A stretch of DNA of 64,000 nt from an uncultured Chloroflexia bacterium (lineage in GTDB: Bacteria; Chloroflexota; Limnocylindria; Limnocylindrales; CSP1-4): NCBI GenBank assembly GCA_963816905.1, contig CAWFMQ010000014.1:172715-236714 (forward strand). The letters run 5' to 3'. This document shows, piece by piece, positions 24,689 to 51,645 of this stretch. The number at the start of each line of letters is the position of its first letter. Position 1 is the first letter of the stretch. The notes under the pieces are model-generated. The model searched no databases. It saw only the letters and a list, made by a program, of their open reading frames with translations, and was not told the DNA's origin. The translations under genes and the position numbers were made by a program.

Positions 24689-24764
24689 CCGCTGGGCGGT
24701 CCGGCCAGTGACGCCAGGACCGGATCGACTCGTCGCCGGCGTAGATGGACCGCAGCCAGGTCCG

Positions 24765-25413
24765 TCAGTCGCGGGGCAGCTCGATCAAGCCTCGCTCGAT
24801 CGCCCGCGTGACGGCCGAGGTCCGGTCGGTCACGCCGAGCTTCTCGAAGATGTGGGCGAGGTGGGTCTTGATGGTCGCCTCGCTGATACGCAGCGCGTGC
24901 GCGATCTCCTTGTTGGACGCGCCGCGGGCGACCAGCGCGACGACCTCGAGCTCGCGCCCCGACAGCGCCTCGGCCCCTGTGCCCGGACGAGGCGCCAGCG
25001 CGGTGCATGAGGCGAGCGGCGACCGAGGGAGCAAGGGGTGCACCGCCGGCGACGACGCTGCGCGCCGCGGCGAACAACGTCTCGCGCGGCGCGTCCTTCA
25101 GCATGTACCCGGCTGCTCCGGCCTCGACCGCCCGCAGGATCTGGGCGTCTGAGTCGTAGGTCGTCAACACGAGGACGGGCGGTGGGTCGGGCAGCCGCCG
25201 GATGCGGGCGATCGCTTCCACGCCATCGAGGACCGGCATCTGCAGGTCCATCAGCACGAGATCGGGTCGGGTCGCCAGCACCTGCTCGATGGCCTGCGCA
25301 CCGTCGGCGGCCTCGCCCACGACCGCGAAGCCGGCGTCGGTCTCGAACATGCCACGGAGGCCGGTTCGGACGACGGGGTGATCGTCGACGATGAGGAGGC
25401 GGATGACGGTCAT
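24765..25413 (-). CDS. NarL/FixJ-family response regulator (receiver + LuxR HTH); frameshift in linker near 25000
   Basis: Receiver MTVIRLLIVDDHPVVR...DLQMP (frame of 25413). LuxR HTH ...LSGRELEVVALVARGASNKEIAHALRISEATIKTHL... (ORF 24765..25043). Confidence 0.75.
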
Positions 25414-26723
25414 CGCGCAACCAGCTCCGGCGTGGGCTCAGGCGCCGGGGCGGGCGCGGGCAGGCTGACCGCGATCGTGGTGCCCTCGCCGGGCGCGCTC
25501 TCCACCGCCACGCTGCCGCCGAGCGCCTCGGCTCGCTCGCGCATGCCGAGCAGGCCGAGACCGCCCGCAGGACCCGGCGCGAGCGCGGTCGGGTCGAAGC
25601 CGCGACCGTCATCGGCCACGTCGAGGGTGACCTCGCCGGGGAAGTACGAGAGCGTGACGGTGACGTGGCTGGCCGCCGCGTGGCGGCGGACATTGGCGAG
25701 CGCCTCCTGCGTCGCGCGCAGGAGCGTGACTTCCACGTCGGGGTGGAGGGTGCGCACGGTCCCTGTGACGGTGACATCGGTGGGCGGCCCGTCCTGGGCG
25801 GCGGCCGCGGCGACCCGCTCGATCGCGCCCGGGAGCCCGCCACCGGCGAGCGCGTCGGGTCGCAGCGCCCAGGCCAGGCCGCGCGCCTCGGCCAGGCTGC
25901 TACGGGCCACACCTTCCGCTTCCTGCACGTGGTGCCGCGCCCGCGACGGATCGGTATCGAGCGAGACGTCGGCAGCCTCGAGGTGGGCGACCACGCTCGC
26001 GAAACCCTGGGCGAGCGTGTCATGGATCTCGCGCGCCAGGCGGCCGCGCTCCTCCTGGACGCCTTCTTCGCGTTCGGCCGCAGCCAGCTGGCGGCGCGTC
26101 CGCTCGAGCTCGTCGATGAGCCGCCGGCGCTCCAGGCTCTGCCGCGCGATCGCCCCGATCCAGAGCGACATCGCGAACCCGAAGGCGATCTGGACGAGGT
26201 CCGAGGCGATGTGCGGCGCGGCGTCGGCGAGCTGCCAATCGTAGAGATTGAGCTCGGAGAGCGTGAGCGCGATCGCGAGGCCGATACGCTCCCACGACCA
26301 CGGCCGAGCGCCTGGCATAGAGCAGGAAGAAGATCTGCGGGTAGAGCGAGAACTCGAGGTAGCGCGAAGTACGGATTCAGCTGGAGCAGGATCCCGAAAC
26401 AGAGCGTGACCGCCGCCGCATACGGCACGGCGTAGTCGAACCACCAGCCCCACTGCCGGGGATGGCGCATGAACATCGCGACGTACAGGACGAGCAGCAG
26501 GCCCGCGAGGGCGACGGCGACGACCATCGCCTCGACCGTCATGCTCCAGGAGATGCAGCGCGAGCGCTGTCGCGACGACGATCGTCGCGATGTTCCAGAC
26601 GTGCCACAGCGGGAGGCTGCGCACCCATACGTCGGACGGCGCCGCGGTCGCCGTCGCATTACCAGCGGCGGCGACACCAGCGGGTATGTTGGACGGTGCG
26701 GGCGCCATGCTCATCCGCGTCAT
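25410..26723 (-). CDS. Sensor histidine kinase (HisKA_3/NarX-DesK type)
   Basis: N-terminal TM region; H-box ...LAREIHDTLAQGFASVVAHLEAA...; HATPase_c G-boxes. 4-nt overlap with the response-regulator start. Confidence 0.8.
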   Translation of the reverse strand: MTRMSMAPAPSNIPAGVAAAGNATATAAPSDVWVRSLPLWHVWNIATIVVATALALHLLEHDGRGDGRRRRPRGPAARPVRRDVHAPSPAVGLVVRLRRAVCGGGHALFRDPAPAESVLRATSSSRSTRRSSSCSMPGARPWSWERIGLAIALTLSELNLYDWQLADAAPHIASDLVQIAFGFAMSLWIGAIARQSLERRRLIDELERTRRQLAAAEREEGVQEERGRLAREIHDTLAQGFASVVAHLEAADVSLDTDPSRARHHVQEAEGVARSSLAEARGLAWALRPDALAGGGLPGAIERVAAAAAQDGPPTDVTVTGTVRTLHPDVEVTLLRATQEALANVRRHAAASHVTVTLSYFPGEVTLDVADDGRGFDPTALAPGPAGGLGLLGMRERAEALGGSVAVESAPGEGTTIAVSLPAPAPAPEPTPELVAR

Positions 26724-27552: not shown

Positions 27553-28470
27553 GACTCGGTCTCCTGCACGAGGTCGAGGAACGCCGTCTCGAGCGCCCGC
27601 TCTTCGACGGTGACCTCCTCGACTGGGTTGCTCCGTTGAACAGCCGCCCCAGGACCGCCTCGGCATCGACGGCCACGATCTCGAGGCGCGACCCGGTTCG
27701 CTCGACGCGGACCACGCCGGGCCATGCCGCGACGATCGGCCGGGTCGAGGTCGGCCCGCACGTGGATCGTCTTGCCGCCGGCCTGTGCCTTGACCTGCGG
27801 CGGGGTGCCGTCGCGCACGATCGGCCGTGGTTGATGACCACGATGCGGGTGGCGAGCGCGTCGGCTTCCTCGAGCAGATGGGTGGCGAACAGGACCGTGG
27901 TGCCCTGCGCGGCGAGGTCGGTGACGACGTCCCAGAAGCGGCGCCGGCTCTCGACGTCGAGGCCGGTGGTGGGCTCGTCGAGGACGACGAGCTCGGGATC
28001 GCCGCAGAGCGCGAGGGCGAAGAACAGGCGCTGGCGCTGGCCGCCCGAGAGCTTGCCGGCGCGGCGACCCTCGAGGCCCGTCGAGCCCCGCCGCGGCGAT
28101 CACCTCGGCGGCGCGCCGGGGATGCGGGTAGTAGCTGGCGAAGAGCTCCACGAGCTCGGCGACCGTGAGCATCGGGGGAACGCCGGACTCCTGGAGCATC
28201 GCGCCCACCGGGCGCGCGCCTGCGGGTGCTCGGGCGGCAGCCCCAGCAGCCGGACCGTGCCGGCGGTAGGCGCGGCGCAGACCCAGGATGAGCGAGAGCG
28301 CCGTCGTCTTCCCGGCGCCGTTGGGGCCGAGGATCGCCGTGATCTCCCCGGGCCGGACGACGAGGTCGACGCCGCGGAGCGCCTCGACCGCGCCGTAGCG
28401 CTTGGTGACGCCGCGCAGCTCGACGACCGGGGTCGGGGTGAGGGTGAACGCTGGAACCGCGTCAAACTGT
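27549..28470 (-). pseudogene. ABC transporter ATP-binding protein (frameshifted)
   Basis: Walker A ...GPNGAGKTT..., signature/Walker B region and C-terminus ...[19 protein letters not shown]... lie in different frames. No clean start codon. Confidence 0.6.
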
Positions 28471-30467: not shown

Positions 30468-31374
30468 GTGACGAACCAGTCGACCCCCGTGGTGCGCAGG
30501 CACGGCAACTCCTACGACATCTTCATCCTCGTCCTGACCATCATGTCGCTGGCGATCATGGTGCTCCTGCTGCTGCCCCTCGCCCCCGCGGAACTCGACA
30601 CGCTCAGGGTGTACGACAACCTCATCTGCTTCATCTTCATCGGGGACTTCCTCCTGTCCCTCTCCGGTTCGCACCCGCGCAGCGAGTACTTCATCCGGCG
30701 CCGTGGCTGGATCGACATCCTGGGATCGATCCCCAGCCTGGGCATCATCCCGGCCTTCGGGCTCCTGCGCCTCTTCCGGCTCTTCCGGCTCGCCCGCATC
30801 TCCCGCATGCTGCGCGGCCAGCGGAAGAAGGAGCTGATCAGCGACATCATCCACAACCGCAGCCAGTACGCGACGTTCATCACACTGCTGCTGGCCATGA
30901 TCGTGCTGGTGAGCTTCGAGCCTGCTCGTGCTGCAGTTCGAGAGCCGCGCGCCGAATGCGAACATCCTCACCGGCGGCGAGGCGCTGTGGTGGTCGGTCG
31001 TGACCATCACGACGGTGGGCTATGGCGACTTCTATCCGGTCACGGATCTCGGCCGGCTTGTCGCCGTCTTCGTGATGTTCGCGGGCGTCGGCATCATCGG
31101 CGCGCTGGCGAGTATCCTCGCCAGCCTGCTGGTCTCACCGGCGCCGGCGGACGAGCCCGAAGAGGCGGCCGGGGACGAGCCAGCGGCAGGCGCGGCCACG
31201 GCCGGCCAGGCGATGGTGACGGACGGTGGGGCGCAACTCGTCCCCGGCGGCATCGACACGGAACTGGCTCGGACACGCGCGGAGATGGCGCAGACCCGGG
31301 CGGAGATGGCGGAGCTGCGTCGCCAGATCGCAGCAGTGGCGGTGCCGGCGGCAAGCCAACAACAGGGATCGTGA
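30468..31374 (+). CDS. Voltage-gated-like K+ channel (ion_trans, S4 + TVGYGD filter); frameshift near 30915
   Basis: GTG 30468 with GGAGGG RBS. S4 LRLFRLFRLARISRMLRG in frame 0; pore ...WWSVVTITTVGYGDFYP... in frame 1 (ORF 30928..31374). Confidence 0.7.
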
Positions 31375-33219: not shown

Positions 33220-34404
33220 TCACACCCCAGGTGAGGTCCTCAGCCGGTAGGCGAAGAGCGCGATCGGCCGGTAGAGCACGTGGGCGAACTTGCCGAACGG
33301 GACCAGGATCACGAGCGCCATCGCCACCGCGACGTGTACCAGGAATACCGGGTAGCCCCAGGCCGGAGCGTCCGGCAGGTAGAGCCCGAGTTCCAGGACG
33401 AACCCGGTTACGCCGGCGACCCACAGCAGGCCCAGGAAGGACCAGTCCGAGACCGTCGACCGCGCCGATGAGCGGTCGCTGTGGCGCATCCGCCGCCAGG
33501 CCAGGATCGTCGTGCCGTAGACGAGCGCCAGGCCGGCGATCGTCCCCAGCAGGCGGACCGGGTACCAGATCGGCACCGCGGTTCCCGTCGGCTTGATTCC
33601 GGCGATCTCCAGCCCGTAATCGAGGAGCGTCGCGGCGAGCAGTCCCAGGAAACCCCACATCGTGACCGCGTGGATGAACCAGCGGCGGAGGTAGAGCGGC
33701 CGATCCTCGACCGCGTCCGTACACTCCTCGCGGAAGCGGGTCTGAGCAAGGGACTCGCGCCCGATCGAATACCAGGCGGCGTCGGCAAGGCGCCGGGCGG
33801 TTGTGCGTCGCGGCCGTGCGGCCGGCGCCTCCCCCGACGCACTCGCGGTGCCGCCGCGCCCCCGGAACATCCGCCGCGTCATCTCGACGAGGCCGGCGAT
33901 CGCGGCGATCGCGAGCACGATCAGCACGATGAGGCCCAGGTTGTGGATGAATCCCGACGGAATGAAGTCGAACAGCGCCAATGTGGAGCCATCCGTCGGA
34001 CCGCGGACCGAGTACATGAATCCGGCGAGTACCGCGATCAGCGCGGTGATGAAGATGCCGGCGAAGATCCGCGAGCTGCCGAGGAACCGTGCCAGTCGCG
34101 TTCGGTCGTAGCTGGCGACGGCGTAGCGACGCGCGGCGGCCATGAAGTCCCCGGGGTCCGCGTGCGTCGGACAGGCGTCCGAACACTCGCCGCAGCCGTA
34201 GCAGAGCCACAGCTCCGGGCTCGAGAGCAGCTGCTCCTTCATGCCAAGCTGCGCATACCGGAACATCCGGCGCGGGAACGCGCTCCCATCGGTCGAGAGC
34301 GGGCAGATCGCGGAGCACACGCCGCAGTTGAAACAGGCCGAGATGTCGCTCGCCCCGTAGTGCCTGAGGTCCGTGAGAAGGTTGCTGTCGACCTGCGCGG
34401 TCAT
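33220..34404 (-). CDS. QmoC/HdrE-like membrane subunit (N-terminal 2x[4Fe-4S] HdrC-like + C-terminal NarI/HdrE-like TM domain)
   Basis: CFNCGVCSAICP ... CYGCGECSDACP, followed by ~5 TM helices with conserved His. 4-nt overlap with the upstream small ORF. Confidence 0.7.
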   Translation of the reverse strand: MTAQVDSNLLTDLRHYGASDISACFNCGVCSAICPLSTDGSAFPRRMFRYAQLGMKEQLLSSPELWLCYGCGECSDACPTHADPGDFMAAARRYAVASYDRTRLARFLGSSRIFAGIFITALIAVLAGFMYSVRGPTDGSTLALFDFIPSGFIHNLGLIVLIVLAIAAIAGLVEMTRRMFRGRGGTASASGEAPAARPRRTTARRLADAAWYSIGRESLAQTRFREECTDAVEDRPLYLRRWFIHAVTMWGFLGLLAATLLDYGLEIAGIKPTGTAVPIWYPVRLLGTIAGLALVYGTTILAWRRMRHSDRSSARSTVSDWSFLGLLWVAGVTGFVLELGLYLPDAPAWGYPVFLVHVAVAMALVILVPFGKFAHVLYRPIALFAYRLRTSPGV

Positions 34405-34655
34405 GCGGTGGGGTCCTTTCGCTCCAGCGCCGCGTACCGGAAATAGCCTTCGTCGTTGGCGCCCTTCAACTCGTGGAGATACCCGTACCGGCGCATGCCC
34501 ATCACCCAGAAGACGACCTCGTGGGTCGGTCGGCCGAGTTCGGCAGCGATCTCCGGGACGGTCCGGGCGCCACCCTCGAGGAACCGGAGGATCCGCGCGT
34601 GCATGAGCGGCTCCTCCCGGATGACCTCACGCGGGTCCCTGTTGACGACGCTCAT
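34401..34655 (-). CDS. Small (84 aa) hypothetical protein, translationally coupled within the hdr operon
   Basis: ATG with GGAGG RBS. ATGA overlap with the hdrA stop and with the qmoC-like start. Possible wHTH-like fold; no family recognised. Confidence 0.4.
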   Translation of the reverse strand: MSVVNRDPREVIREEPLMHARILRFLEGGARTVPEIAAELGRPTHEVVFWVMGMRRYGYLHELKGANDEGYFRYAALERKDPTA

Positions 34656-36493
34656 GCCACTGCCTCCGGGACCAGGCTCACCTTGCGGACCGTGTTCTTG
34701 ACGCTGTGCGAATTCCCGGGCTCGTGCGGGGAGGTCGGGAGGGGGGCCTGCCCCCCTCCAGCCAACTTGTCGATCATCGCGGTGATCTGGGCGCTGGTGT
34801 AGCCCAGCAGGTCGATCGCGTCCTCCGGACACACCGGGACGCAACCGCCGCACCCCTTGCAGCCGGCAGCGGCGATGGACGCGATATCGCGGCCGTTCAG
34901 CCACAGCTTCTCGATGGCGCCGTACGGGCAGGCGTCGACGCACTTCCCGCACCATGTGCAGGCATCTGGGTCGACGATCGCCACGAGCGGATCGAGCTCG
35001 GCCGTGCCCTTCTTGAGGACGGCGGCGCTCTGGGTGACCGCCGCAAGGCCGGAAGCAATCGCCTCCGTCGAGTTCTTGGGTCCCTGGCAGGTCCCGGCGA
35101 TCAGCACGCCTTCCACCATCGTCTCGACCGGGCGCAGCTTGGGATGGATCTCGCTGTAGAACCCGTCCGTGCCGAGCGGCAGCTTGAGGAGGCCCGTGAG
35201 CCCCTCGTTCTTCCGCGGCACCATCCCCGTGACCAGTACGACCAGATCCGCCGGGATCGCGAGCTCTTCCCCGCCGGTCAGGAGGTCCTTGACGGTGACC
35301 ACCAGGCGTCCGGCAGCGTCCCTGGCGACCGCAGGGGGCGCGTCGTCCGGGTACTTCACGTAGACGGCACCGCGCTTCCGCGACTCCGTGTACAACAGCT
35401 CGAACTTGCCGTAGGTGCGGACGTCGCGCGCGAGGTGGTACTGGTGGACCTTCGCATCCAGGTCGGCGACCTTGATCGACGCGTGTGCCGTGGCGGCACA
35501 GCAGTAGCGCGAGCAATACTCGTTGGAGCCCGGTTCGCCCGCCGGTTGCCGGCTGCCGACGCAGTAGATGTAGACGACGTTGCGGACGGGCTTCCCGCGG
35601 TAGCGGAGCGAACCGCTCGAACCGTCGACAAGCTCCTTGAACTCGGGCAGGGTCACGACACCGTCGATGCCGTAGCCGAACTCGCCGTCCGCCGGCTGGT
35701 AGGTGTCGAAGCCGGTGGCCACGACCACCGAACCGACCTCGACCTGGACCGTCTCGGGCGTCCCGCCGTCGATCCGGATGCCGGCGGTGTAGTTGCCGAA
35801 GCTGCCGGACCTGCTGACGACCTCGGCGCTGGTGAAGACCGTAACGCGCGGGCGCCTGGCGATCTCGTCCTGCAGCCTCGCCACGAGCGCATGGCCGTCC
35901 TTGCCGTTGGGATACATTTCGCCGAACCCGCCGACCCAGCCGCCGAGTGCCTGCTCGCGTTCGACCAGGAAGACCTCGAGCCCGATGTCGGCGAGTCCGA
36001 CCGCAGCCCGCATGCCCGCGATGCCGCCACCGATGACGAGCGTCCGCGGGGTGGTCTTGACTTCGATCGGCTCAAGCGGGGTCGTCAGCCGCGTCCGCGC
36101 GATCCCGGCCTTCAGCAGGCAGATGGCTTTGCCTGTTGCGCCGGGACCGTCGTCCGTATGGGCCCAGGAGCACTGCTCCCGCACGTTGACCTGCGTGTAC
36201 TCGAACGGGTTGAGCCCGGCCCGCTTGGCCGCGCCGCGGAACGTGTGGACGTGCAGCTTGGGCGAGCACGAGGCGACGACGAGCCCGTCGAGCCCCTGCT
36301 CCTCGATGTCCGAGACGATCTGCTGCTGCCCGGCGTCGGAGCAGGCGAACATGGTCGACCGGGTGACCACGACGTCGGGGTTGTCGCTGACGGCGGCCAC
36401 GACCTCGTCGACATCCACGTAGTCGGAGATGTTGCCGCCGCAGTGGCAGACGTAGACGCCGATCCGGCGTTCGCCGGTGGGTTGCTCGGTCAT
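34652..36493 (-). CDS. hdrA: Heterodisulfide reductase subunit A-like flavoprotein (HdrA/QmoA-B family), full length
   Basis: N-terminal Cys domain IGVYVCHCGGNI...VNVREQCSWAH; FAD fold LVIGGGIAGMRAA; ...CSRYCC...; C-terminal CTWCGKCVDACP/CKGCGGCVPVCP ferredoxin. Start ATG 36493 overlaps the upstream stop (ATGA). Confidence 0.85.
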   Translation of the reverse strand: MTEQPTGERRIGVYVCHCGGNISDYVDVDEVVAAVSDNPDVVVTRSTMFACSDAGQQQIVSDIEEQGLDGLVVASCSPKLHVHTFRGAAKRAGLNPFEYTQVNVREQCSWAHTDDGPGATGKAICLLKAGIARTRLTTPLEPIEVKTTPRTLVIGGGIAGMRAAVGLADIGLEVFLVEREQALGGWVGGFGEMYPNGKDGHALVARLQDEIARRPRVTVFTSAEVVSRSGSFGNYTAGIRIDGGTPETVQVEVGSVVVATGFDTYQPADGEFGYGIDGVVTLPEFKELVDGSSGSLRYRGKPVRNVVYIYCVGSRQPAGEPGSNEYCSRYCCAATAHASIKVADLDAKVHQYHLARDVRTYGKFELLYTESRKRGAVYVKYPDDAPPAVARDAAGRLVVTVKDLLTGGEELAIPADLVVLVTGMVPRKNEGLTGLLKLPLGTDGFYSEIHPKLRPVETMVEGVLIAGTCQGPKNSTEAIASGLAAVTQSAAVLKKGTAELDPLVAIVDPDACTWCGKCVDACPYGAIEKLWLNGRDIASIAAAGCKGCGGCVPVCPEDAIDLLGYTSAQITAMIDKLAGGGQAPLPTSPHEPGNSHSVKNTVRKVSLVPEAVA

Positions 36494-39196
36494 GCCGGCA
36501 CCTTCAGCCCTTCCAGGTGTGCTGCCGCCCCCGCGACCGCCGCACCCGCGTGGAGGATCGAGTCGGTGATGTCTCGCGCGCCCGCCGCAGCACCGGCCAC
36601 GAACACGCCGGGAATGCTGGTTCGGCCGGGACTCAGGTCCTCGTCGGGTTCGCCGACGTAGCCGTACTCGTCCGGGGCCAGGGCGTTCAACGGGAAGAGG
36701 CCTTCGGCGTCGTGGTTCGGCTGGACGCCGACCGCCAGGACGACCAGGTCGTACTCGGCGTCGACGAGCGCCCCGCCTCCCTCGATGTCCTCGTAGCGCA
36801 GGACGAGGTTGCCGTCGTCCTTCTCGGTGACCTTTGCGACGCGCCCCTTGATGTAGTTGGCGCCCATGGACTTCGCGCCCTCGTAGAACTCGTCGTAGCG
36901 CTTGCCGGCCGCCCGGATGTCCATGTGGTGGACGGTGACGTCGGCGAGCGGCAGGGCGCCCATGATCAGCTGGTTCTGCTTCACGGAGTACATGCAGCAG
37001 AACTTGGAGCAGAGCGGGTTGTCCACGGTTTCGTCGCGTGAGCCGGTGCACATCACGTAGGCGATGCGCTCGGGCACCTTGCCGTCGCCGGGCCGCAGGA
37101 CGGTGTTGAAGGGCCGGGTCGGCGCCAGCAGGCGGTCCATCTGCATGCCGGTGATGACGTTCTTGTATGTCCCGAACCCGTACTGCGGCTTGAGGTCCGC
37201 ATTGAAGAGCTTGAAGCCGGTGGCCACGACCACCGCGCCGACCTGGACGTCGAACTCGTGTTCCCGCATCCGCAGGTCGATGGCGTAGGCCGGGCACGCG
37301 GTGATGCACTGCCCGCACTCGGAGCAGACGCCGCAGTCCAGGCAGCGCCCGGCACCCGCCAGTGCCTCCTCCTCTGTCATCGGCGGCTCGAGCTCGAGGA
37401 AGCCGGCCGGGCTGCCGACCACGGCCGCCGCGATGGCGGCCGGTCCATCGACGTGCGTGTAGGTCGTCTGCCGCGCCAGCACCTTCTGCTTGTCCGCAAT
37501 CGGCAGCGGGAGGTCGAACCCCGTCAGGGCCTCGCCGCGGAGCCAGCGGTCGAGCATGAACGCCGCTCGGCGCCCCTGGCCGACGGCCTGCGCGATGTCC
37601 GACGCACCCGTGACGACATCGCCCGCCGCAAACACCTCCGCCACCTCGGTCTGCAGCGTCCCGCGATCGACCCTGATCGTGGAGTTGCCGTTGACCTTGA
37701 GCCGCCCGGCGAACGCGACCGTGTCGGGCGTCATGCCGATCGCGACGATCACGGCGTCGCAGTCGATGACGAACTCGCTGTTGGGGATCGGTTCGGGCCG
37801 CCGACGGCCGGAGGCGTCGGGCCGGCCGAGACGCATGCGGGCGCACCGGAGGCCGGTCACGCGACCCGTCGGCCCCGCCGACGACCTCGACCGGGGCGAC
37901 CAGGAACTCGAAACGGACGCCCTCCAGCTCGGCGTCGTGGACCTCGGGGCCGTGCGCCGGCATCTCCTCGCGACCGCGGCGATAGGCCACTCGCGTTTCC
38001 CGGCGCACCGAGCCGGAGTGCGGTCCGCGCCGCGTCCATGGCGACGTTGCCGCCACCGACGACGACAACGCGCTTCCCTGCCAGGTCGGCGGGCCGGTCG
38101 AGCTTGACCGCGCGGAGGAACTCGAGGCCGGACAGGACGCCGGCGCGCTCCTCGCCCGGGACGCCGAGGCTCGTCGAAAGCGGAGTGCCGGTCGCCAGCA
38201 GGACCGCGTCGTAGCCCGCGGCGCGCAGGTCTTCGACATCCTCGACCGGGCGTCCGTGGCGATCTCCACGCCGAGCGCCGTGACGTTCGCGATGTCCTGC
38301 GCCACGACTTCCGGTGGCAGGCGGTAGCCCGGAATGGCGAGGCGGAGGAATCCACCCGGCTCCGACGCCGACTCAAAGATCTTGACCCTGTATCCCTTGC
38401 GCGCCATCTGCCAGGCGGCGGTCAGCCCGGTCGGGCCGGAGCCCACCACGGCCACCGACTTCCCGTTCAGGGGCGGCGGCTCGATGCCGGGCCCGTCTGC
38501 TCCCGCGTAATGCCGGTCCGCGACGAACCGCTTCAGGCGGCGGATCGGCAGCGTGCCCTCGAGGCTGCCCCGCGTGCACTCGCTCTCGCACGGCGCGTAG
38601 CAGGCACGACCCAGCGTGCCGACGAGCGGCGTCGCATCCAGCACCAGCTGGAACGCCTTCTCGTATTCCCCGCTGCGGATCAGCGAGACGTACCCGTGGG
38701 CCCTGATGCCCGCCGGGCAGGTGAAGCTGCACGGCGATTTCCCGTCACGCTCGATGACCGCCTTCTTGGGCACTGCCTGCGGGAACGCGATGTACGCCGC
38801 CCGGCGGGCCACCAGGTCCGCGTTGAACTGGTCCGGCACCGCGACCGTGCAGGCCTGCTCACACAGCTGGCAGCCGGTGCAGGCCGCCTCGTCCACGTAG
38901 CGCGGCTTCTGGCGCACGGTGGCGTGGAACCGGCCGTCCCCGTCGGGCGTGATCCCACGGACCTCGCTGTAGGTGAGCGCCGTGATGTTCGGGTGGTGAA
39001 TGGTGCCCGCCATCTTCGGCGTGGAGATGCAGCTGGCGCAGTCCAGGGTCGGGAAGACCTTGCTGAGCAGGATCATCTTCCCGCCCACGCTGGCTTCCTT
39101 CTCCACGAGCAGCACCTTGTAGCCCATGTCGCCGAGCTTCAGCGCGGACTCCATGCCGCCGATTCCGGCGCCGACGACCAGGACGTCGTACTCCAT
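36490..39196 (-). CDS. HdrA-like protein whose ferredoxin-insert region carries a GltD/NfnB-like NAD(P)H-binding module; >=3 frameshifts
   Basis: HdrA N-part (MEYDVLVVGAGIGG...FPTLDCASCIS...HPNI...CTGCQLCEQAC...YIAFPQAVP) runs directly into a GltD-like module (CPAGI...LIRSGEYEKAF...GRACYAPCESECTRG...VAVVGSGPTGLTAA...VAYRRGREEMPA...AAGDVVTGASDIAQAVGQGRRAA). The HdrA C-part follows (CLDCGVCSECGQCITACP...VVVATGF...CTGSRDE...CSKFCC...). The pieces are spread over three frames. Confidence 0.65.
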
Positions 39197-39199: not shown

Positions 39200-39643
39200 T
39201 CAACTCACTTCGGACGGCCCGAGCTGGGCCAGCGCGTCCGAGAACTGCTGCATGTGCCGGGTGAACTGCTCGGCGCAGACGGAACAGATGGCGGCCATCC
39301 GCACGCGTGACGGCGCATGGCCGCGTTCCTTGAGCAGCGCCTGCGACTCGGCCATGATTCGGGAGGCGCGGTGGGCGCAGTCCGGGAGATAGGCGCATTC
39401 GTCGCCGTCCGAGGCGACGAACACGCCGTCGAACCCACGCTCGATGGCGCGCAGGATCCAGGCCGGCTTGATGCCGCTGGTGCAGGGCAGCCCGATGACC
39501 ACGACGCCGGGCGAGTAGTGCATGTGGGCACTTCCCGCAAGGTCGATGCCGGGGTCCGAGATGTTGTTGGTGGAGAAGACCAGGATCCTCGGGGCGGATC
39601 CCGACCCTCGCTCCGGCGCCACGGGGACGGCGAGCGCGCTCAT
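39200..39643 (-). CDS. mvhD: MvhD/FlpD-like protein (methyl-viologen-reducing hydrogenase delta subunit family)
   Basis: ILVFSTNNISDPGIDLAGS...VVVIGLPCTSGIKPAWILRAIERGFDGVFVASDGDECAY. RBS AGGAG. Stop overlaps the downstream start. Confidence 0.8.
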   Translation of the reverse strand: MSALAVPVAPERGSGSAPRILVFSTNNISDPGIDLAGSAHMHYSPGVVVIGLPCTSGIKPAWILRAIERGFDGVFVASDGDECAYLPDCAHRASRIMAESQALLKERGHAPSRVRMAAICSVCAEQFTRHMQQFSDALAQLGPSEVS

Positions 39644-39731: not shown

Positions 39732-39995
39732 CTACTTCCCGCGGCGGACGAACACGCGGTCGTAGCCCTCAGCCTGGAGGGAGCCGAGGAACGCGTGGCC
39801 GACCTTCGCGGACCAGGCGCCGATGTCCGTCTTGGTGACGGGATCGGTTGACCAGATCTCGATGACAGAGCCGATGGGCACGGTGCCCATGCCCTTCTTG
39901 GCCTCGAGCAGCGGGCCGGGGCAGGCGGCGCCGCGCGCGTCGATGACCTTGGCGACGACGATGGTCTCGAGCTCGGGTGCGGTTGCGATTGCCAT
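39732..39995 (-). CDS. tusA: TusA-family sulfurtransferase (CPxP motif)
   Basis: 87 aa; ...IDARGAACPGPLLEAKKGMG... Confidence 0.8.
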   Translation of the reverse strand: MAIATAPELETIVVAKVIDARGAACPGPLLEAKKGMGTVPIGSVIEIWSTDPVTKTDIGAWSAKVGHAFLGSLQAEGYDRVFVRRGK

Positions 39996-40013: not shown

Positions 40014-40376
40014 TCAGTAGGTAAGGACGTTGGTGGCCGAGGTGACCTCGGCGACAAAGCGGCCGGCGGCGACGATCTCCGCGCCCTCGATGAGCGCGTC
40101 CGCGCCGATTTCGCGGCTCTTGAGACACGGCGAGCACACGAGCAACTTCCCGCCGAGTTCGCGGAAGTCGCCGAACAGCCTGGCCAGCGGCGGGAACCCG
40201 GCGGCCTCGACCATCTCGATGGTGCCGGCGCGGGCGAGGAGGACACCGTCCGCCTGGAGGCCGACGACGACCTCGACGTCCGAGGCCAGTGCGGCGGCGG
40301 CCATCACGAACGGGATCGTCACGTGCTCCGGGTGGTCCGGGCCGTGCGTGACCATGAATACGAGCTTCTCTGCCAT
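40014..40376 (-). CDS. DsrE/DsrF-like family protein (DsrE3-type)
   Basis: MAEKLVFMVTHGPDHPEHVTIPFVMAAAA...LLVCSPCLKSREI...; ~120 aa. Confidence 0.75.
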   Translation of the reverse strand: MAEKLVFMVTHGPDHPEHVTIPFVMAAAALASDVEVVVGLQADGVLLARAGTIEMVEAAGFPPLARLFGDFRELGGKLLVCSPCLKSREIGADALIEGAEIVAAGRFVAEVTSATNVLTY

Positions 40377-40408: not shown

Positions 40409-40819
40409 TCAGATGAAGAGGAGCTGGCCGTCGTCGGCACTCAGGAAGAACGTCGCGACACCGCTGACGCCGTCCACGACCGGATCCAGCTGGGACGGTT
40501 CGAGCTTCAGCAGGTCCATCGAAGCCGAGCAGGCCTGGATGTTCACCTCGCCGAGTTCCTTGACCTGCCGGAACGTGTCCAGCCACTGGAGGGCGGCCGG
40601 GACCTTCTGGTCGACGAGCTGCCGGTCGGCGGGTCCCGCCTCCGCGGAAAGGCCACGGGCGTGGCCGGCGCGATCGGTTCGGAACGCGTCGAGTGCCCAG
40701 AACTGGAGCAGGACGTTGACCGGCTTGCCCAGTGCCGCGGCGCCGGCGGCGAGGATCGCGGCGGCCTGGAGCTTGTCGTCGGTGCCGGAGAAGAGAACGA
40801 GCGAGAGCGTGTCTGACAC
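40409..40819 (-). CDS. DsrE/TusD-like family protein
   Basis: 136 aa; ...LSLVLFSGTDDKLQAAAILAAGAAALG...IQACSASMDL... DsrE-fold pattern. Confidence 0.6.
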   Translation of the reverse strand: MSDTLSLVLFSGTDDKLQAAAILAAGAAALGKPVNVLLQFWALDAFRTDRAGHARGLSAEAGPADRQLVDQKVPAALQWLDTFRQVKELGEVNIQACSASMDLLKLEPSQLDPVVDGVSGVATFFLSADDGQLLFI

Positions 40820-40828: not shown

Positions 40829-41188
40829 TCAGCTATGAACGGCGGTGGGTTGTGGTGGGGCGCTGCATGCGGCGGCCAGGTCGCCGAGCCGCGAGATCTG
40901 GCGGAGGAGGACCTGCCGCATCAGCTCGCAGGCATCGACGACGCCGCCGTCGGTCAGCTGGTAGCGGACCTCGCGCCCGGTGCGGACGGCCTCGACGAGC
41001 CCCGCCGCACGAAGCGCCGCCAGGTGGCGCGACGCGGCCGGCTGCGGGATCTCGAGGTGATCGGCGAGCCGGCCGACCTCCCACGGTCCGTCCGCGAGGA
41101 GGTGCACCATCTCGAGCCGGCGCGGATTGGCGAGGGCCATCAGGACGGCGGCCTGCAGGGCGTAGATGTCGTCCACGGGTCGGAACAC
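40829..41188 (-). CDS. ArsR/SmtB family transcriptional regulator (first gene of hdr/tusA operon)
   Basis: ...NPRRLEMVHLLADGPWEVGRLADHLEIPQPAASRHLAALRAAGLVE... Confidence 0.7.
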   Translation of the reverse strand: MFRPVDDIYALQAAVLMALANPRRLEMVHLLADGPWEVGRLADHLEIPQPAASRHLAALRAAGLVEAVRTGREVRYQLTDGGVVDACELMRQVLLRQISRLGDLAAACSAPPQPTAVHS

Positions 41189-41236: not shown

Positions 41237-41729
41237 TCAGAGCTCGACGCGCGCCGCGTGGTCCAACGCGACCACGAGGCCCTCGGCCGCGCTTCTCGTC
41301 GAGGTTGTGCTCGAGGATCGGGATGTAGAGCGATTCCTCGCGCAGGTGGACCTTGAGGATCGAGTACAGGCGATACAGGACCCGGGTAAGCTCGATCAAT
41401 TCGGCGCCCGGCGCGCCGGGTTTCACCAGGCGGTCCGACAGGTCGCCGAGTTGCGCAATGAGCCTTCGGATCTCGGCGTGCTCCCGCTCCATCGGTGCCA
41501 TCGCGAGCCGGCAGGACAGCAACCGGTCCAACTCGGGATGCACGGCCGCCTCGACCGCTTCCATGTGCGGCAGGAGCGTCGTAACGAGGAACTCGTGCTC
41601 CGATGCGACCTTTGCCGCGAGATCCTCTCGAGGCAGGTCGCCAACTGCGTCTGCGAGCCGGCGCAGCTCCTCCACGTGGGCCATCAACCGCTCACGATGC
41701 TCTGTCGAAACCTGGGTCAGAGTCGGCAT
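41237..41729 (-). CDS. Hemerythrin-like (HHE cation-binding) domain protein; apparent frameshift near the C-terminus
   Basis: ...LLPHMEAVEAAVHPEL...MEREHAEIRRL...LYRLYSILKVHLREESLYIPILEHNL... The terminal ~18 aa lie in another frame. Confidence 0.55.
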
Positions 41730-44449: not shown

Positions 44450-44713
44450 TCGCAGTTCTCCTGTACGGCCCTTGCGGGCTGGATTGCCCGGCTGGGAAAG
44501 CAGCCGGGTTCTGAGGGCCCGAGCATCGGATCGGCGAATGGACGGGTCATGGAGTCGGCGGACAGGTTGCATGAAGTCGCCCGGGGTCGAGCCGCTCCCC
44601 CACCAGGGGCGCCCGGTACCCCGGAACCGGGCCGCCGTTGTCAGCTACTTGCGCAACCATGCAAGGACATGCTACGCTCCCTGCGCCGCGGGATCGGCCC
44701 GCGGATGGACAGG

Positions 44714-45094
44714 ATGAAGGTGGGGATGAGCCACTCGAACAGTCGGGACCCTGAGCAATACCGACTCCACGCTGAGGTATGCAGAGTCCTGACAGACCCC
44801 AAGCGGTTGATGCTCCTCGAGATCCTGCGCGACGGCGAGCGGTCGGTCGGCGAGCTCGCGAACGAGCTGGGCAGCACACTCGCCAACACGAGCCAGCACC
44901 TGGGCGTCATGCGATCCGCCGGGCTCGTAGAAACGCGCCGGAACGGAACGACCATCGTCTACCGGCTCGCGGAGCCCGAGATCGTCGAGGCCTGCGACGT
45001 CATCCATCGCATCGTCGACCGTCGCCTGGCGACGCGAACCGGAGCCCGCCGGCGGTTCGAGCCGGCCGTGTCAGCCGGCAGCACACCGAGGTGA
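44714..45094 (+). CDS. ArsR family transcriptional regulator
   Basis: ...LTDPKRLMLLEILRDGERSVGELANELGSTLANTSQHLGVMRSAGLVE... Confidence 0.75.
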   Translation: MKVGMSHSNSRDPEQYRLHAEVCRVLTDPKRLMLLEILRDGERSVGELANELGSTLANTSQHLGVMRSAGLVETRRNGTTIVYRLAEPEIVEACDVIHRIVDRRLATRTGARRRFEPAVSAGSTPR

Positions 45095-45096
45095 CC

Positions 45097-45502
45097 ATGT
45101 CCAGCGCCACCCAGTACGCATTCGGAACTCGAGTCCGCGGATCCATCGGGGATCTGCGTCCACGTGTCGAGGCAGCCCTGAAGGTCGAGGGCTTCGGCGT
45201 CCTCACCGAGATCGACGTTCAGGCGACGATGAAGGCGAAGCTCGGCGTCGATCGGGCGCCGTATCTCATCCTCGGCGCCTGCAACCCGTTGCTCGCCCAC
45301 CGGGCGCTCGAAGCCGACCCATCGGTGGGCGTGCTCCTTCCCTGCAACGTCGTCGTCCGGGAGGACGGCCCCGACACGATCGTCGAGGCCATGGATCCGG
45401 TAGCCGCCCTCGGAATCGTCGAATTCACCGAAGATCGAGCCAATTGCGCGCGAGGCCCGCGAGCGCCTCGAGCGCGTCATCAGCAGACTGGAGTCCAGGT
45501 GA
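45097..45502 (+). CDS. DUF302 domain protein (frameshift near 45432)
   Basis: RBS GAGGTG; ...EGFGVLTEIDVQATMKAKLG...YLILGACNP...LLPCNVVV.... The true C-terminus ...IEPIAREARERLERVISRLESR lies in another frame. Confidence 0.6.
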
Positions 45503-45777
45503 TGAGTCTCAATCCCTCGTCGAAGCCCGCGTCCGGGCACCGCGTCATCATGTTTTCGACGCCAACGTGCCCTTGGTGCAACCGGGCCAAGGGCTATCTC
45601 CGGAGCCGCAGCATCCCGTTCCGCGACGTGGACGTGAGCCGTGACCCGGTGGCCGCCCGCGACCTGGTCCGACGGACGGGCCAGATGGGCGTACCCGTCA
45701 TCGAGATCGACGGACGGCCGATCGTCGGCTTCGACCAGCCGCGCATCGACGCGGCACTCGGTTTGCATCTGAACTGA
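45502..45777 (+). CDS. Glutaredoxin-like protein (CPWC active site)
   Basis: ...HRVIMFSTPTCPWCNRAKGYL...VPVIEIDG...; TGATG overlap with the DUF302 stop. Confidence 0.7.
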   Translation: MSLNPSSKPASGHRVIMFSTPTCPWCNRAKGYLRSRSIPFRDVDVSRDPVAARDLVRRTGQMGVPVIEIDGRPIVGFDQPRIDAALGLHLN

Positions 45778-45790
45778 CAGGAGAAGGGTC

Positions 45791-46090
45791 ATGTCCAACC
45801 AGGTCCAACCGCTCGGCAGCCGGGTCCTCGTACGCCTCCTGCCGGAAGAGAGCGTGACCAAATCCGGGCTCTACCTCCCAGACACCGCGAAAAGAGAAGC
45901 CGCAGCGCGGTGAGGTCGTGGCGATCGGCGACGAAACGACAACGATCAAGGTCGGCGTCGGAGACAAAGTCCTGTTTCCCGAATACACGGGAACCGAGGT
46001 CCGGATCGAGGGCGAGGATCACCTGATCATCGATGGCACGGAGCTGCTGGCCACTCTCCGGGACGCCCCGGTTGCCGTTGCCGTCGTCTG
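45791..46090 (+). CDS. groES: Co-chaperonin GroES (frameshift in an A-run at ~45893)
   Basis: MSNQVQPLGSRVLVRLLPEESVTKSGLYLPDTAK then a +1 shift, ...EKPQRGEVVAIGD...EYTGTEV.... The indel sits in an AAAA homopolymer. No groEL follows. Confidence 0.65.
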
Positions 46091-46865: not shown

Positions 46866-48000
46866 GTGCCCTTCGGACTGATCAGCATCACGCCCGACCC
46901 GATCATCTTCGAGATCCCCGGCACCTTCGTCCGGATCGGCTGGTACGGCCTTGGCTACGTCGTGGCCGTCGCCGTGATGATGTGGGTGAGCCAGCGGGAG
47001 GCCGTATGGCGCGGCGTGGACCCGGGCCACATCCTGAACGCGCTGATCATCGTGGCCGCGTGCGCCATCGTCGGGGCTCGGCTGTACCACGTCATCGACC
47101 AGTCGGGCTACTACAGCCAGAACCTCCCCGCGATCGTGCTGCCCCCATACAGCGGCCTTGCCCTCTACGGCGGCATCGCGGGCGCGCATCGTCGGCATCC
47201 TGATCTACACGCGGCGCCACACCATATCGCTCCAGCTGGCGCTCGACATCTGCGTGCCGGGCACCCTGTTCGCCCAGGGCATCGCCCGGTGGGGCAACTT
47301 CTTCAACCAGGAGCTGTACGGCCCGCCGACGAACCTTCCCTGGGGCATCACCATCGGCTGCGACCATCGGGTCGCGCCGTACTACTGCCCCGGCGATCCC
47401 AACCTGGCCGCCGGCGCGGCCGCCTACCCGGTCGACACGACGGGATTCCACCCGCTGTTCTTCTACGAGTCGGCGCTGGACATCCTTGGTGGCTTCGTGG
47501 CCCTCTGGCTGTCCCGCCGCCACATCGACCGCCTCCGCGACGGCGACCTCGCCTCGTTCTGGCTGATCTGGTACGGCTCGGTCAGGTTCATGCTCGAGAC
47601 CTTCCGCTTCGACTACGACTGGAAGCTGCTGGGCATCATGCCCACTGCCATGGCGATCGGCTTGCTCGTGGTGGCGTTCGGGATCATATCGATCATCTGG
47701 CGCCATCGCTCCCCGCGGCCGATCGAGCCGGAGAGCGGTGAGCGTGAGGCTGACGGTAGGCCAGCATTGCACGACATGCCCGAGCCGGACGATCCCAACA
47801 AGGCGCCTCGGCTAACAACGGAGCCAGCCGACAGTGGCGCAAACGTCACGCTCGCCTCGCGCGCAGCCGCGCCGATAACCGCTGCCCCGGTGCTCTGGTG
47901 GGAGGTTGCATGCTTGCTCAAATGTGCGCATGGCTTCATCTGTACGGGCCGTTGGTTGCCTGTTGCCGGGACCGATTGGATCTATGGAGAACTGGCATGA
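46866..48000 (+). CDS. lgt: Prolipoprotein diacylglyceryl transferase Lgt (1-nt indel near 47185)
   Basis: N-part ORF 46866.. (GWYGLGYVVAV...), continuing in ORF 47158..48000 (...GIARWGNFFNQELYG...). Indel in a GCGCGC run. Long C-terminal tail. Confidence 0.8.
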
Positions 48001-48160: not shown

Positions 48161-48357
48161 TGTACCAGCTCTACGCCTTTTCGAGATCCACCTCGCAGAG
48201 GAGAGTTGTACGCGCCTCAGGGGTACCGGTACTTTCGGCCCCCATGCGGTGTGCACCGGCACCGTGTCTGCAGGCGGCCGGCCTCGCGGCGCTCGGGCTA
48301 CCATCTCGGCACGGTGAGGCTGATCCGCGGTAGACCTCGACAGCGCGCCGGGCCTGC

Positions 48358-49207
48358 ATGCCGCTGACGGCGGGCGGCGACCTTGCGCTCCTGCTCGTGA
48401 GCGGGTTCGCCGGCCTGCTGGGGGCTCTCGGCGGCGTCGGGGGAGGCCTGCTCGTGGTGCCGGCGCTCACCCTGCTGTTCGGTGTCGACATCCGCCTGGC
48501 AGCGGGCGCCAGCATCGTGGCCGTCATCGCGACCAGTTCGGGCGCTGCCGCGGCCTACATCCGCGACGGCCTGGCGAACCTGCGGATCGGCATGTTCCTC
48601 GAAGTTGGCGACGACCACCGGCGCTGTGGTGGGCGCGCTCGTCGCGGGGTTCGTGGCATCCGAAATGCTGTTCCTGGTCCTCGGGATCATCCTGTTCGCC
48701 TCCGCCGGCATGCAGCTGCTGCGCCTGGCGGAGGATGCGCCCCCCGCGGACGACACCGCGGCCATGCACTCGCGACTGCAGCTTGGCGGGGAGTACTACA
48801 GCGTGCGGCTGCAGCGGTTCGTCCGCTACGTCGCCCGACGCGTCCCGCTCGGGTTCGCGCTGATGTGGGTCGCCGGCCTGGTCTCGGGCCTGATCGGGAT
48901 CGGGTCGGGCGCGCTCAAGGTCGTCGCCATGGACGCAGCCATGGGCCTGCCGATGAAGGTGAGTTCGGCGACCAGCAACTTCATGATCGGCGTGACCGCG
49001 GCCGCCTCGGCCGGGATCTACCTCGCGAGAGGGGACGTGGACGCGCGGATCACCGTCCCGGTGGCGCTCGGCGTGCTGGCCGGCGCGGTCGCGGGCGCCC
49101 GGTTGCTGCCGCGCATCTCCGGCCGCGCGGTGCGCCTGATCTTCATCCCCATCCTGCTGGTGATCGGGGTGGAGACGGTCCTGCGGGGCCTCGGGGTCGG
49201 GATATGA
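48358..49207 (+). CDS. Sulfite exporter TauE/SafE family protein (1-nt indel near 48600)
   Basis: ORF 48358.. N-part + ORF 48482..49207; DUF81 two-half-domain TM pattern. Confidence 0.75.
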
Positions 49208-50791: not shown

Positions 50792-50814
50792 TGACACCTC
50801 CTTGTGGTGGTGGG

Positions 50815-51645
50815 TCACACGACCTGCAGCGCAAGGTACCCCGCGAGCGTCAGCACGACCAGCGCGAACCCGCGCCCCAGCGTTGCGGCCGGCAGGCGGG
50901 TCGAGAAGGTACCGCCGATCAGCCCTCCGGCGATCGCGCCCAGCGTGAAGAGCACGGTGATCGCAGGGTCGATCGACGCGCCCGTGCCCAGGTGACCCAG
51001 GAGCGCCGTTCCGCTGTTGATCGCGATGATCGGTAGGGATGTGCCGATCGCCTTCGACATCGGCAAGCGGAGGACGACCACGAGCGCCGGGACGATGAGA
51101 AAACCGCCGCCGACGCCGAAGAACCCGGTGAGGAGGCCCACGCCGACCGCCGTCACGATGAACGGGCCGAAGTCGACGATCGGGCACGCCGTCGGCAGCA
51201 TCGAGCGGAGGCGAGCCCGCATTGAGTGGAATGGCAGCGACGTCGTCGGAAGGAACTCGAGCTCGGCCACCTGTCGTTCGGCGGTGCGCTCCTGGAGCCG
51301 CGCCCGGCGCCAGGTCGCGATGGCCGCCACGACCATCAGGACGACGAAGGCCGCGAGCAGCTCGCTCGGCGGCACCTCGCGATTGAGGTACCCGCCGATC
51401 GCGGTGCCTGCGATCCCCACGACGCCGAACAGCAGGGCGCGCTGCCACAGCACGTTTCCGCGGCGGGCATGCGGTAGCGTCGCCCACGCCGCGCTGATCC
51501 CGACGACGATCAGCGACATCGTGGTCGCCTCCCGGGCGGGGACGCCGAGGACGCCGACGAGCAGCGGCACGGTCAGGATGGAGCCGCCACCACCGACCAG
51601 CCCGAGCGACAGGCCGACCAGCCCCCCGAGGACGATGGAGATCAC
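50815..51645 (-). CDS. Sulfite exporter TauE/SafE family protein (intact)
   Basis: 276 aa; duplicated Gly-rich TM half-domains (GGGGSILTVPLL.. / GVGGGFLIVPAL..). Confidence 0.8.
   Translation of the reverse strand: MISIVLGGLVGLSLGLVGGGGSILTVPLLVGVLGVPAREATTMSLIVVGISAAWATLPHARRGNVLWQRALLFGVVGIAGTAIGGYLNREVPPSELLAAFVVLMVVAAIATWRRARLQERTAERQVAELEFLPTTSLPFHSMRARLRSMLPTACPIVDFGPFIVTAVGVGLLTGFFGVGGGFLIVPALVVVLRLPMSKAIGTSLPIIAINSGTALLGHLGTGASIDPAITVLFTLGAIAGGLIGGTFSTRLPAATLGRGFALVVLTLAGYLALQVV

Follow-up and report, generated by a model that had tools for sequence, protein, structure and literature searches.

An HdrL-type HdrA with an inserted NfnB/GltD-like module in an uncultured Chloroflexia bacterium: a known architecture whose frame breaks are most likely assembly errors

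A stretch of 64,000 nucleotides (nt) from an uncultured Chloroflexia bacterium (assembly GCA_963816905.1, contig CAWFMQ010000014.1, positions 172,715 to 236,714; hereafter the window) encodes on its minus strand an HdrA-like protein that is interrupted by an NAD(P)H-binding module. The protein is of the HdrL type, also known as 'type III' HdrA, an architecture that by its domain and structure matches is real and has already been described; in the sequence as it stands the reading frame is broken three times. We hold it to be very probable that this is an HdrL-type HdrA whose breaks are assembly errors and which would belong to an NAD(P)H-linked Qmo-like complex. An earlier reading made without database searches (the sequence-only reading) took the gene for a novel, possibly inactivated HdrA. 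It is not unusual, being a member of the known HdrL/type III family with likely sequencing errors.

The order proposed in the sequence-only reading, an N-terminal part of HdrA followed by a complete GltD/NfnB-like module and then by the C-terminal half of HdrA, was confirmed by Pfam and by sequence matches to solved structures (Table 1). The N-terminal part holds the GxGxxG motif for binding flavin adenine dinucleotide (FAD), FPTLDCASC and, from the inserted ferredoxin domain, its first CxxCxxCxxxC motif (C106/109/112/116). The insert consists of a Fer4_20 domain for two [4Fe-4S] clusters, a FAD Rossmann motif (VAVVGSGPTG), an NAD(P)H Rossmann motif (VVVVGGGNVA...YRR) and a poorly conserved linker at residues 557-617. 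The C-terminal part comprises the C618/C621 pair (RCLDCG), the second motif CxxCxxCxxxCP (C624/627/630/634) and the rest of the thioredoxin-reductase-like FAD domain with C716 and CSKFCC (C729/733/734), and is without a C-terminal ferredoxin domain; C618 and C621, read as cluster ligands of the insert module, lie just past the insert boundary. Pfam places Fer4_20 (PF14691) at residues 153-230 (59.6 bits, cutoff 25.8) and Pyr_redox_2 (PF07992) at 247-541 (156 bits), along with an N-terminal FAD-binding start and weak 4Fe-4S matches at 95-119 and 623-649. The TIGR01316 gltA model is covered in full at 316 bits, below its cutoff of 472, and the NCBIfam models of HdrA stay far below theirs (NF040770, 449 vs 1100 bits; NF041778, 323 vs 1400). 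Of the HdrA domains, the protein lacks the cluster domain at the N-terminus and the ferredoxin domain at the C-terminus.

Structure databases give the same picture. For residues 150-630 there are matches to the NfnL-like domain of NfnA from the Bfu-type NfnABC complex (9bov_A, E = 7e-112), and further to StnABC (8oh5_C), T. sibiricus NfnA (9n5u_A), NfnB/NfnL (4ylf_B, 5jca_L) and GltD, while the two protein ends match methanogen HdrA (9sfi_A, 8rvu, 5odc, 7bkb) as two stretches. Both the insert and the HdrA halves were thus matched by the profile and structure alignments that the sequence-only reading had suggested as a check, and structural prediction of the corrected protein, also suggested there, gave an insert fold that matches NfnL: Foldseek returned the same ranking, with a template modelling (TM) score of 0.76 and a root-mean-square deviation of 2.7-3.0 Å to 5jca_L and 4ylf_B. 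When the insert is removed from the query, residues 146-290 of 9sfi_A align to protein residues 5-150 and residues 289-562 to 620-891. Both flanks are contiguous in 9sfi_A, which places the insertion in the inserted ferredoxin domain, after its first CxxCxxCxxxC motif and before its second. In canonical HdrA (9sfi_A, 8rvv_A) '...FPQAVP...IDK' is followed directly by the second of these motifs; here the insert stands between '...AVIERD' (about residue 151) and 'CLDCGVCSECGQCITACP' (618-635). In sequence alignment, the two cluster motifs are cleanly parted by the insertion. The junction had been sought instead at a CPAGI motif shared by the two families, but CPAGI (160-164) lies inside the insert, where its counterpart in the NfnL-like domains (9bov_A, 9n5u_A) is 'CPAH', and the idea that the families recombined at a CP(A/V)G site common to both finds no support in the alignment of the HdrA flanks with the insert removed.

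The gene occupies exactly the span first proposed, with its ATG at 39196 and its stop codon at 36492-36490, and the claim that at least three frame changes are needed was correct: three were confirmed by reading the minus-strand frames and by alignment to homologues. Their number stands, but their sites are at about 38249, 38002 and 37865 rather than 38100, 37990 and 37880, the first having been misplaced by ~150 nt. Between 38350 and 37700 the sensible protein switches on the minus strand from '...GVEIATDA' in frame 0 to 'PVEDVEDLRAAGYDAVLLATG...NVAMDAARTALRLGA' in frame 2, returns to frame 0 with 'ETRVAYRRGREEMPAH...VEVVGGADG', and then shifts to frame 1 with 'RVTGLRCARMRLGRPDASGRRRP...'. 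Repair consists of adding one C to the CCC at 38250-38248 and removing one base each from the CCGGG at 38003-37999 and the GGGT at 37867-37864, all within 385 nt, and produces a coding sequence of 2706 nt. In a DNA alignment with five orthologous loci the window has one missing and two extra bases, with no further indels over 500 nt, and a protein alignment with ten homologues has no gaps at any of the repaired sites, where 'TDAPVEDV', 'RLGARETRVAYRRG' and 'GADGRVTGLRC' correspond to 'T..PV.D', 'RLGA.ET.VAYRRG' and 'G.VTGLRC' in the homologues. In the AlphaFold model of the repaired protein, the 10-residue blocks that surround residues 317, 400 and 444 score 86-93 in the predicted local distance difference test (pLDDT). 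The model as a whole is moderate (mean pLDDT 70.4, predicted TM score (pTM) 0.49, Fe-S regions <50), and the low pTM and Fe-S values confined its use to two purposes, judging local confidence around the repairs and matching the fold of the insert.

A mechanical list of open reading frames (ORFs) contains a 1514-amino-acid ORF at 34652..39196 (minus strand) that covers HdrL and the following HdrA gene, mostly out of frame. It is an artefact and not a giant fusion protein, arising because the high G+C content leaves few stop codons in wrong frames and combines with the indels; the window has ~69% G+C, and its very long stop-free wrong frames run for kilobases.

Homologues speak for a single continuous protein. 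At E <= 1e-20 the database holds 7257 matching proteins, partial single-domain matches included; the best 120 of these have 894-934 amino acids, 73-84% identity and 97-100% query coverage, and E = 0 matches across 100% of the length are far beyond chance. Among 81 related loci, several of them truncated, all encode the orthologue in one reading frame, and in 80 every high-scoring segment pair keeps to a single frame; the lone extra pair, at locus L015, is on the opposite strand and spurious. The closest relative locus compared, an independent metagenome scaffold of 22.7 kb (L081), carries an intact gene of 902 codons for an HdrL with 84% identity, and the best GTDB locus is 78% identical. At least 562 GTDB genome stretches encode a relative of HdrL; the hosts are mostly metagenome-assembled genomes (MAGs) of Chloroflexota (Limnocylindria-type), together with Actinomycetota, Gemmatimonadota, Bacillota and one Dormibacterota-type MAG. 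Among the database proteins, the nearest match that bears an organism name is P0022, from a Thermaerobacter sp. MAG. The natural domain insertion suggested by the sequence-only reading is therefore found as one protein, in a single ORF of ~900 amino acids, at 81 of 81 loci and in the best 120 database proteins, and the search for fused homologues, likewise suggested there, found that all 120 are fusions of about this size. These same ORFs rule out three separate genes (HdrA fragment, gltD, HdrA fragment). The visibly error-prone assembly might be taken to mean that the HdrA-GltD-HdrA order is itself an artefact, a chimeric misassembly or a row of adjacent genes; yet the order recurs in one ORF of 894-934 amino acids in thousands of independent assemblies from several phyla, the Fe-S ligands are invariant on both sides of the insert, and the same order has been published for HdrL and type III HdrA, leaving this explanation next to no weight.

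The breaks in HdrL are not isolated. Frames were labelled ab initio with a codon-usage Viterbi procedure, and homology to the ORFs of related loci served as a second line of evidence. The Viterbi labelling recovers the three HdrL breaks within a few bases and adds ~20 same-strand frame changes without a stop codon at the boundary, and homology finds abutting matches in different frames in several other genes. In total about 23 breaks, the three in HdrL included, affect at least 10 unrelated genes in the 64 kb; 18 of the 23 are of the extra-base and 5 of the missing-base class. A sigma-factor/anti-sigma gene is split twice, its flanks sharing 83-96% identity with L081, the break at 48601 in a TauE gene shows against ten loci, and in five genes a Pfam domain is divided over two adjacent frames at consecutive profile positions (Table 1). 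The 19 genes matched to L081 at >60% identity have no mid-gene stops and no large deletions; the sole in-frame stop among them is in a TehB-like methyltransferase, about 15 residues before the C-terminus of the L081 protein. A frame plot of G+C by codon position and a filter of ORFs by G+C at third codon positions were also tried and were too noisy to place frame changes, and a stop-codon census on stop-to-stop ORFs of related loci was uninterpretable because spurious frames are conserved too; it was redone with called L081 genes only.

These observations bear on whether the gene is a genuine pseudogene, in which the three indels would be real mutations and the protein lost. The frame is objectively broken three times, the net shift of +1 puts the C-terminal 458 residues out of frame, and an error cannot be proven from the assembled sequence alone. 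Against inactivation stand the ~20 like breaks, spread over 10 or more unrelated genes that include lgt and a sigma factor, and the lack of mid-gene in-frame stops or large deletions in the 19 genes matched to L081. Extra-base breaks outnumber missing-base breaks 18 to 5, whereas mutation in bacteria is biased towards deletions. The partner genes of the operon are all intact, and the out-of-frame segments are conserved as well as their flanks: in the repaired protein the shifted segments reach 75.9% and 75.0% identity with P0001, the closest homologue, and the flanking segments of the insert 83.6% and 72.0%, so that on this comparison there is no extra decay in the shifted segments. Many single-base indels, mostly insertions, without mid-gene nonsense and in genes such as lgt, point to an unpolished or poorly covered assembly and not to decay. 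Since the same single-base breaks hit at least 10 unrelated genes, sequencing or assembly errors are most likely the cause of those in HdrL; a pseudogene is improbable, and on this reading the organism almost certainly makes an intact protein of 901 residues. Of the two options left by the sequence-only reading, 'an inactivated gene or an assembly artefact', the window-wide breaks make the artefact much the likelier, with a small residual chance of inactivation.

Alternatively, programmed ribosomal frameshifting or transcriptional slippage could make the protein from the sequence as it stands, and all three sites do lie in short G or C runs. Three events in both directions (-1, +1, +1) within 385 nt would then be required, while the frame is constant at each of the 81 orthologous loci, which do not conserve the runs, the three sites are free of indels in the five orthologues aligned as DNA, and like breaks are scattered randomly in other genes. 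Single-frame orthologues at all 81 loci exclude a conserved programmed frameshift, and we find the explanation scarcely credible.

The HdrL architecture was published in 2009 (PMC2702500), the NfnB-like insertion of ANME-1 HdrA (from anaerobic methanotrophic archaea) in 2022 (PMC9012536) and type III HdrA in 2025 (PMC12054007). Because it has been known since 2009, the high novelty first ascribed to the protein is unsupported. HdrL, represented by HdrL1-3 of Desulfobacterium autotrophicum HRM2 and by Sfum_0824, is likewise large and HdrA-like, and carries an added part of the GltD type that binds NAD(P)H; it was proposed to draw electrons from NADH (PMC2702500) and has been found in the proteome of Syntrophobacter fumaroxidans (PMC5947623). 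In HdrL, as here, an mvhD gene is adjacent, and one HdrL locus also stands in tandem with hdrA; the mvhD (FlpD) gene that marks HdrL lies 3 nt upstream in the window and adjoins in 79 of the 81 loci. The described HdrL proteins differ in that they belong to anaerobic sulfate reducers, some with selenocysteine, and are encoded beside hdrBC, dsr or fdh genes, whereas the protein of the window, likened to HdrL1-3 by description, has QmoC-like and TusA/DsrE partners and is without HdrBC or selenocysteine.

Type III HdrA and HdrA9-11 of ANME-1 have the same topology, with an NfnB-like insertion of ~500 residues inside the inserted ferredoxin domain (PMC9012536, PMC12054007). The ANME-1 class A9 derives from the short HdrA6 form without N- and C-terminal domains, and the same domains are missing here. 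Type III HdrA differs in being archaeal, in comprising nine sequences only and in its HdrBC or Mvh context, while the bacterial clade found here is large. Its insert has been proposed to block the ferredoxin site and to feed electrons from NAD(P)H via Fe-S clusters to the flavin (PMC12054007). Among solved structures the best matches of the insert are NfnB/NfnL of NfnAB (NfnSL) and the NfnL-like domains of NfnA and StnA, at 36-40% identity and TM 0.76. NfnB/NfnL and the insert share the two-cluster Fer4_20 domain, FAD and the NADPH site, and an RCLxCG cysteine pair after the flavin domain occurs here and in 9bov_A and 9n5u_A; the homologous domain of NfnABC is the point of entry at which NADPH is oxidised (PMC11829005). 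Unlike Nfn, the insert sits within HdrA's ferredoxin domain; it does not form a subunit of its own and is not joined to an Fdh/NuoG-like domain, and no NfnA/NfnS partner gene is nearby. QmoABC, the quinone-interacting membrane-bound oxidoreductase known from sulfate reducers and from some sulfur oxidisers, resembles the present cluster in having two HdrA-like flavoproteins, an MvhD-like element and, in QmoC, an HdrC-like Fe-S part with a di-haem b membrane domain. It differs in that QmoA is without an NfnB-like insert, whereas here MvhD is a separate protein and the QmoC score is below cutoff. 'Type II' Qmo proteins, nearer to HdrA, are known from organisms that have no Apr or Dsr, and their function has been noted as open (PMC10504309). 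With canonical HdrA (5odc, 8rvu, 9sfi) the protein shares the thioredoxin-reductase-like FAD domain, DCxxC, C-x12-C-x3-CC and the inserted 2x[4Fe-4S] ferredoxin domain; canonical HdrA differs in its N-terminal cluster and C-terminal ferredoxin domains, its unsplit ferredoxin domain and Glu356, which is Asp687 here.

The cofactor ligands are well conserved. Across 121 sequences all 23 cysteines are conserved, 21 of them in every sequence and C451 and C479 in 98-99%. C53, C56, C716, C729, C733 and C734, all invariant, fit the cluster of the FAD domain, C106/109/112/116 with C624/627/630/634 fit the two clusters of the split ferredoxin domain, and the seven invariant residues C156, C160, C199, C203, C207, C618 and C621 fit the two clusters of an NfnB-type module. 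At the HdrA flavin site, for which residue roles have been assigned (PMC12054007), the lysine is K739, invariant after the CC motif (residue 409 in 9sfi_A numbering), and the equivalent of Glu356 is the invariant Asp687. Occupancy of these sites by cofactors is predicted. GGGNVA (GxGxxA), with YRR after it, forms the second Rossmann motif, and motifs of this type are linked to NADPH in the wider family. GXGXXG in type III HdrA was read as NADH, and GGGNVA with YRR, by the same rule (PMC12054007), points to NADPH, which is probably the nucleotide bound by the insert.

HdrL is part of a tight gene cluster. The stop codon of FlpD lies 3 nt upstream of the HdrL start, the ATG of the partner HdrA overlaps the HdrL stop (ATGA), and the remaining junctions down to QmoC abut directly or overlap; such close junctions from FlpD to QmoC are a pointer to translational coupling. 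The order TusA-FlpD-HdrL-HdrA-small protein-QmoC is conserved across related loci, and L081 (7454-15850) has the same order followed by cydABDC, which encodes a cytochrome bd oxidase. DsrE genes, an ArsR-type regulator and a hemerythrin are often found upstream. The partner HdrA has an N-terminal Cys-rich cluster domain, a FAD domain and a C-terminal 2x[4Fe-4S] ferredoxin domain, and the L081 orthologue of the small conserved protein has a faint PF0610-like_N match. The QmoC-like subunit combines an HdrC-like 2x[4Fe-4S] domain with a NarI/HdrE-like domain and matches NCBIfam NF038018 (qmoC) over its full length (E = 2e-59), with 202 bits against a cutoff of 300; in 65 orthologues eight cysteines are conserved at 98-100% and four transmembrane histidines are invariant, which fits two [4Fe-4S] clusters and two haems b. 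Its N-terminus is the sole HdrC-like part of the cluster. The genes annotated in the neighbourhood and in L081 include no HdrB (CCG-domain) gene and no aprBA genes, the rest of the window not having been specifically searched for aprBA. The tail of the partner HdrA (34660-34760, minus strand) has, relative to L081, an in-frame insertion of about 30 codons, 'KLAGGGQAPLPTSPHEPGNSHSVKNTVRKVS', that holds a perfect 10-bp palindrome, GGAGGGGGGC/GCCCCCCTCC, at 34738-34759; no further copy of the palindrome occurs in the window.

The conserved cluster suggests a Qmo-like membrane complex into which electrons from NAD(P)H enter through HdrL. The FAD of the insert would be reduced by NAD(P)H, which is probably NADPH, and electrons would pass through the two [4Fe-4S] clusters of the insert and the two split-ferredoxin clusters to the HdrA-type FAD. 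The route between this FAD and the quinone pool, taken in one direction or the other, would comprise the partner HdrA, an MvhD-like [2Fe-2S] protein and a QmoC-like subunit with Fe-S clusters and two haems. Together these proteins would make up a Qmo-like, NAD(P)H-linked membrane complex, in which bifurcation or confurcation with a third partner may be possible. This electron path, the link to quinone, the overall reaction, bifurcation and a part for TusA and DsrE are all predicted from gene content and motifs; that the insert may feed electrons from NAD(P)H into the flavin/Fe-S relay of HdrA, as the sequence-only reading also proposed, agrees with published hypotheses for HdrL and type III HdrA (PMC2702500, PMC12054007).

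Several points weigh against this reading as a whole. On function, the bacterial HdrL clade is uncharacterised, no HdrB-type subunit or aprBA stands nearby to point to the other substrate of the complex, and a pTM of 0.49 is too low to check inter-domain geometry or cluster distances. On the breaks, the case for errors was judged from the assembled sequence. A degenerate DNA pattern found no same-species contig with either allele at the third indel in the metagenome collection, and exact look-ups of the QmoC-like and TusA proteins gave no record. The breaks are also clustered, with three in 385 nt in HdrL, two within 175 nt of the sigma gene and five or more in the regulator at 57-59.8 kb. Such clustering needs a local cause, for instance low coverage at high G+C, which is assumed here: the interval 37500-38499, which holds the three HdrL indels, has a G+C content of 0.73, a local maximum against 0.67-0.70 around it, and this may lie behind poor coverage or polishing at the HdrL breaks.

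Table 1. Features of the window. Positions are those of the window; profile positions refer to the Pfam model and are given in the last column.
Feature	Position	Strand	Remarks
HdrL / type III HdrA gene (HdrA with inserted NfnB/GltD-like module)	36490..39196	-	901 aa after three repairs
HdrA N-terminal part, residues 1-151	38744..39196	-	aligns to 9sfi_A residues 146-290
Inserted NfnB/GltD (NfnL)-like module, residues 152-617 (~467 residues)	37345..38743	-	Pfam, PDB matches, Foldseek
HdrA C-terminal part, residues 618-901 and stop	36490..37344	-	aligns to 9sfi_A residues 289-562
Indel 1	38248..38250	-	one base missing: CCC, four bases in orthologues; frame 0 to frame 2
Indel 2	37999..38003	-	one extra base inside CCGGG
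Indel 3	37864..37867	-	one extra base inside GGGT
Hemerythrin	starts 41729; gene region 41240-41729	-	broken near 41295
ArsR-type regulator	41188..40829	-	
DsrE2-like	40819..40409	-	PF13686; in 60/81 loci
DsrE	40376..40014	-	PF02635; in 40/81 loci
TusA sulfur carrier	39995..39732	-	PF01206; in 78/81 loci
FlpD/MvhD-like	39643..39200	-	PF02662, 99.7 bits; adjoins orthologue in 79/81 loci
Partner HdrA, 613 aa	36493..34652	-	in 78/81 loci
Conserved 84-aa protein	34655..34401	-	no significant family match; in 75/81 loci
QmoC-like membrane subunit	34404..33220	-	in 70/81 loci
Split Pfam domain Ion_trans			first frame 4-142, next 167-226
Split Pfam domain LGT			first frame 1-93, next 95-235
Split Pfam domain TauE			first frame 1-69, next 72-236
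Split Pfam domain ArsA			first frame 2-58, next 61-153
Split Pfam domain Aldedh			first frame 53-166, next 200-277
TauE-like gene	5781-6527		break 5984
ArsA	10931-11821		break 11305
Aldehyde dehydrogenase	13169-14111		breaks 13521-13618 and 13870
NarL-type regulator	24686-25421		break 25017; REC and HTH in different frames
ABC ATPase	27824-28451		breaks about 28271 and 28078
K+ channel	30468-31317		break 30920
lgt	46866-47685		break 47186
TauE	48352-49201		break 48601
Sigma/anti-sigma gene	51696-52675		breaks 52222 and 52047
Large LuxR-family regulator	57053-59829		at least 5 breaks, ab initio evidence only
tRNA-Gly (anticodon TCC)	4041-4116	+	only RNA-family match in window
Second ArsR-like match	44759-45028		similarity to L081
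Third TauE	51645..50818		similarity to L081
TehB/TPMT-like methyltransferase			similarity to L081
YgaP-like membrane protein			similarity to L081
OsmC	62457-62963		similarity to L081
Rhodanese	63025-63549		similarity to L081
Second hemerythrin	63608-end		similarity to L081

Elsewhere in the window, genes of a sulfur or redox-stress type lie around the cluster (44700-45800, 49794-51645, 52523-52726 and 62454-64000), assigned by similarity to annotated L081 genes only, and a candidate DUF302-like and glutaredoxin-like ORF was seen by eye only at about 45100-45777. A secreted-looking protein of 766 residues (52986-55286, minus strand) has a signal-like N-terminus and repeated Ser/Thr-rich Ig-like segments. 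The window also holds a caution for genome scans in general, as 69% G+C combined with frequent single-base indels makes real genes look like multi-frame puzzles.

The cluster occurs in at least several hundred soil and freshwater genomes of Chloroflexota, Actinomycetota, Gemmatimonadota and Bacillota, with no apr or dsr genes nearby. A further-reaching hypothesis, which we offer as possible but doubtful, is that the TusA-MvhD-HdrL-HdrA-84-residue protein-QmoC-like cluster encodes an uncharacterised, membrane-bound, NADPH-linked complex of the Hdr/Qmo type, of which the window would have a normal, working copy whose breaks are sequencing errors. Such a complex may be a flavin-based bifurcating NADPH:quinone/ferredoxin oxidoreductase, or it may be an NADPH- or quinone-linked system that acts on persulfide sulfur bound to TusA or DsrE. 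The known architecture itself gains nothing new from this window; yet it is common in bacteria beyond anaerobic sulfate reducers and methane-cycling archaea, and the bacterial clade, linked as it is with sulfur-carrier genes and a quinone-interacting subunit of the QmoC type, is a reasonable target for biochemistry. If true, either option would bring chemistry of the Hdr/Qmo type to seemingly aerobic lineages, judged so from cydABDC beside the cluster in L081.

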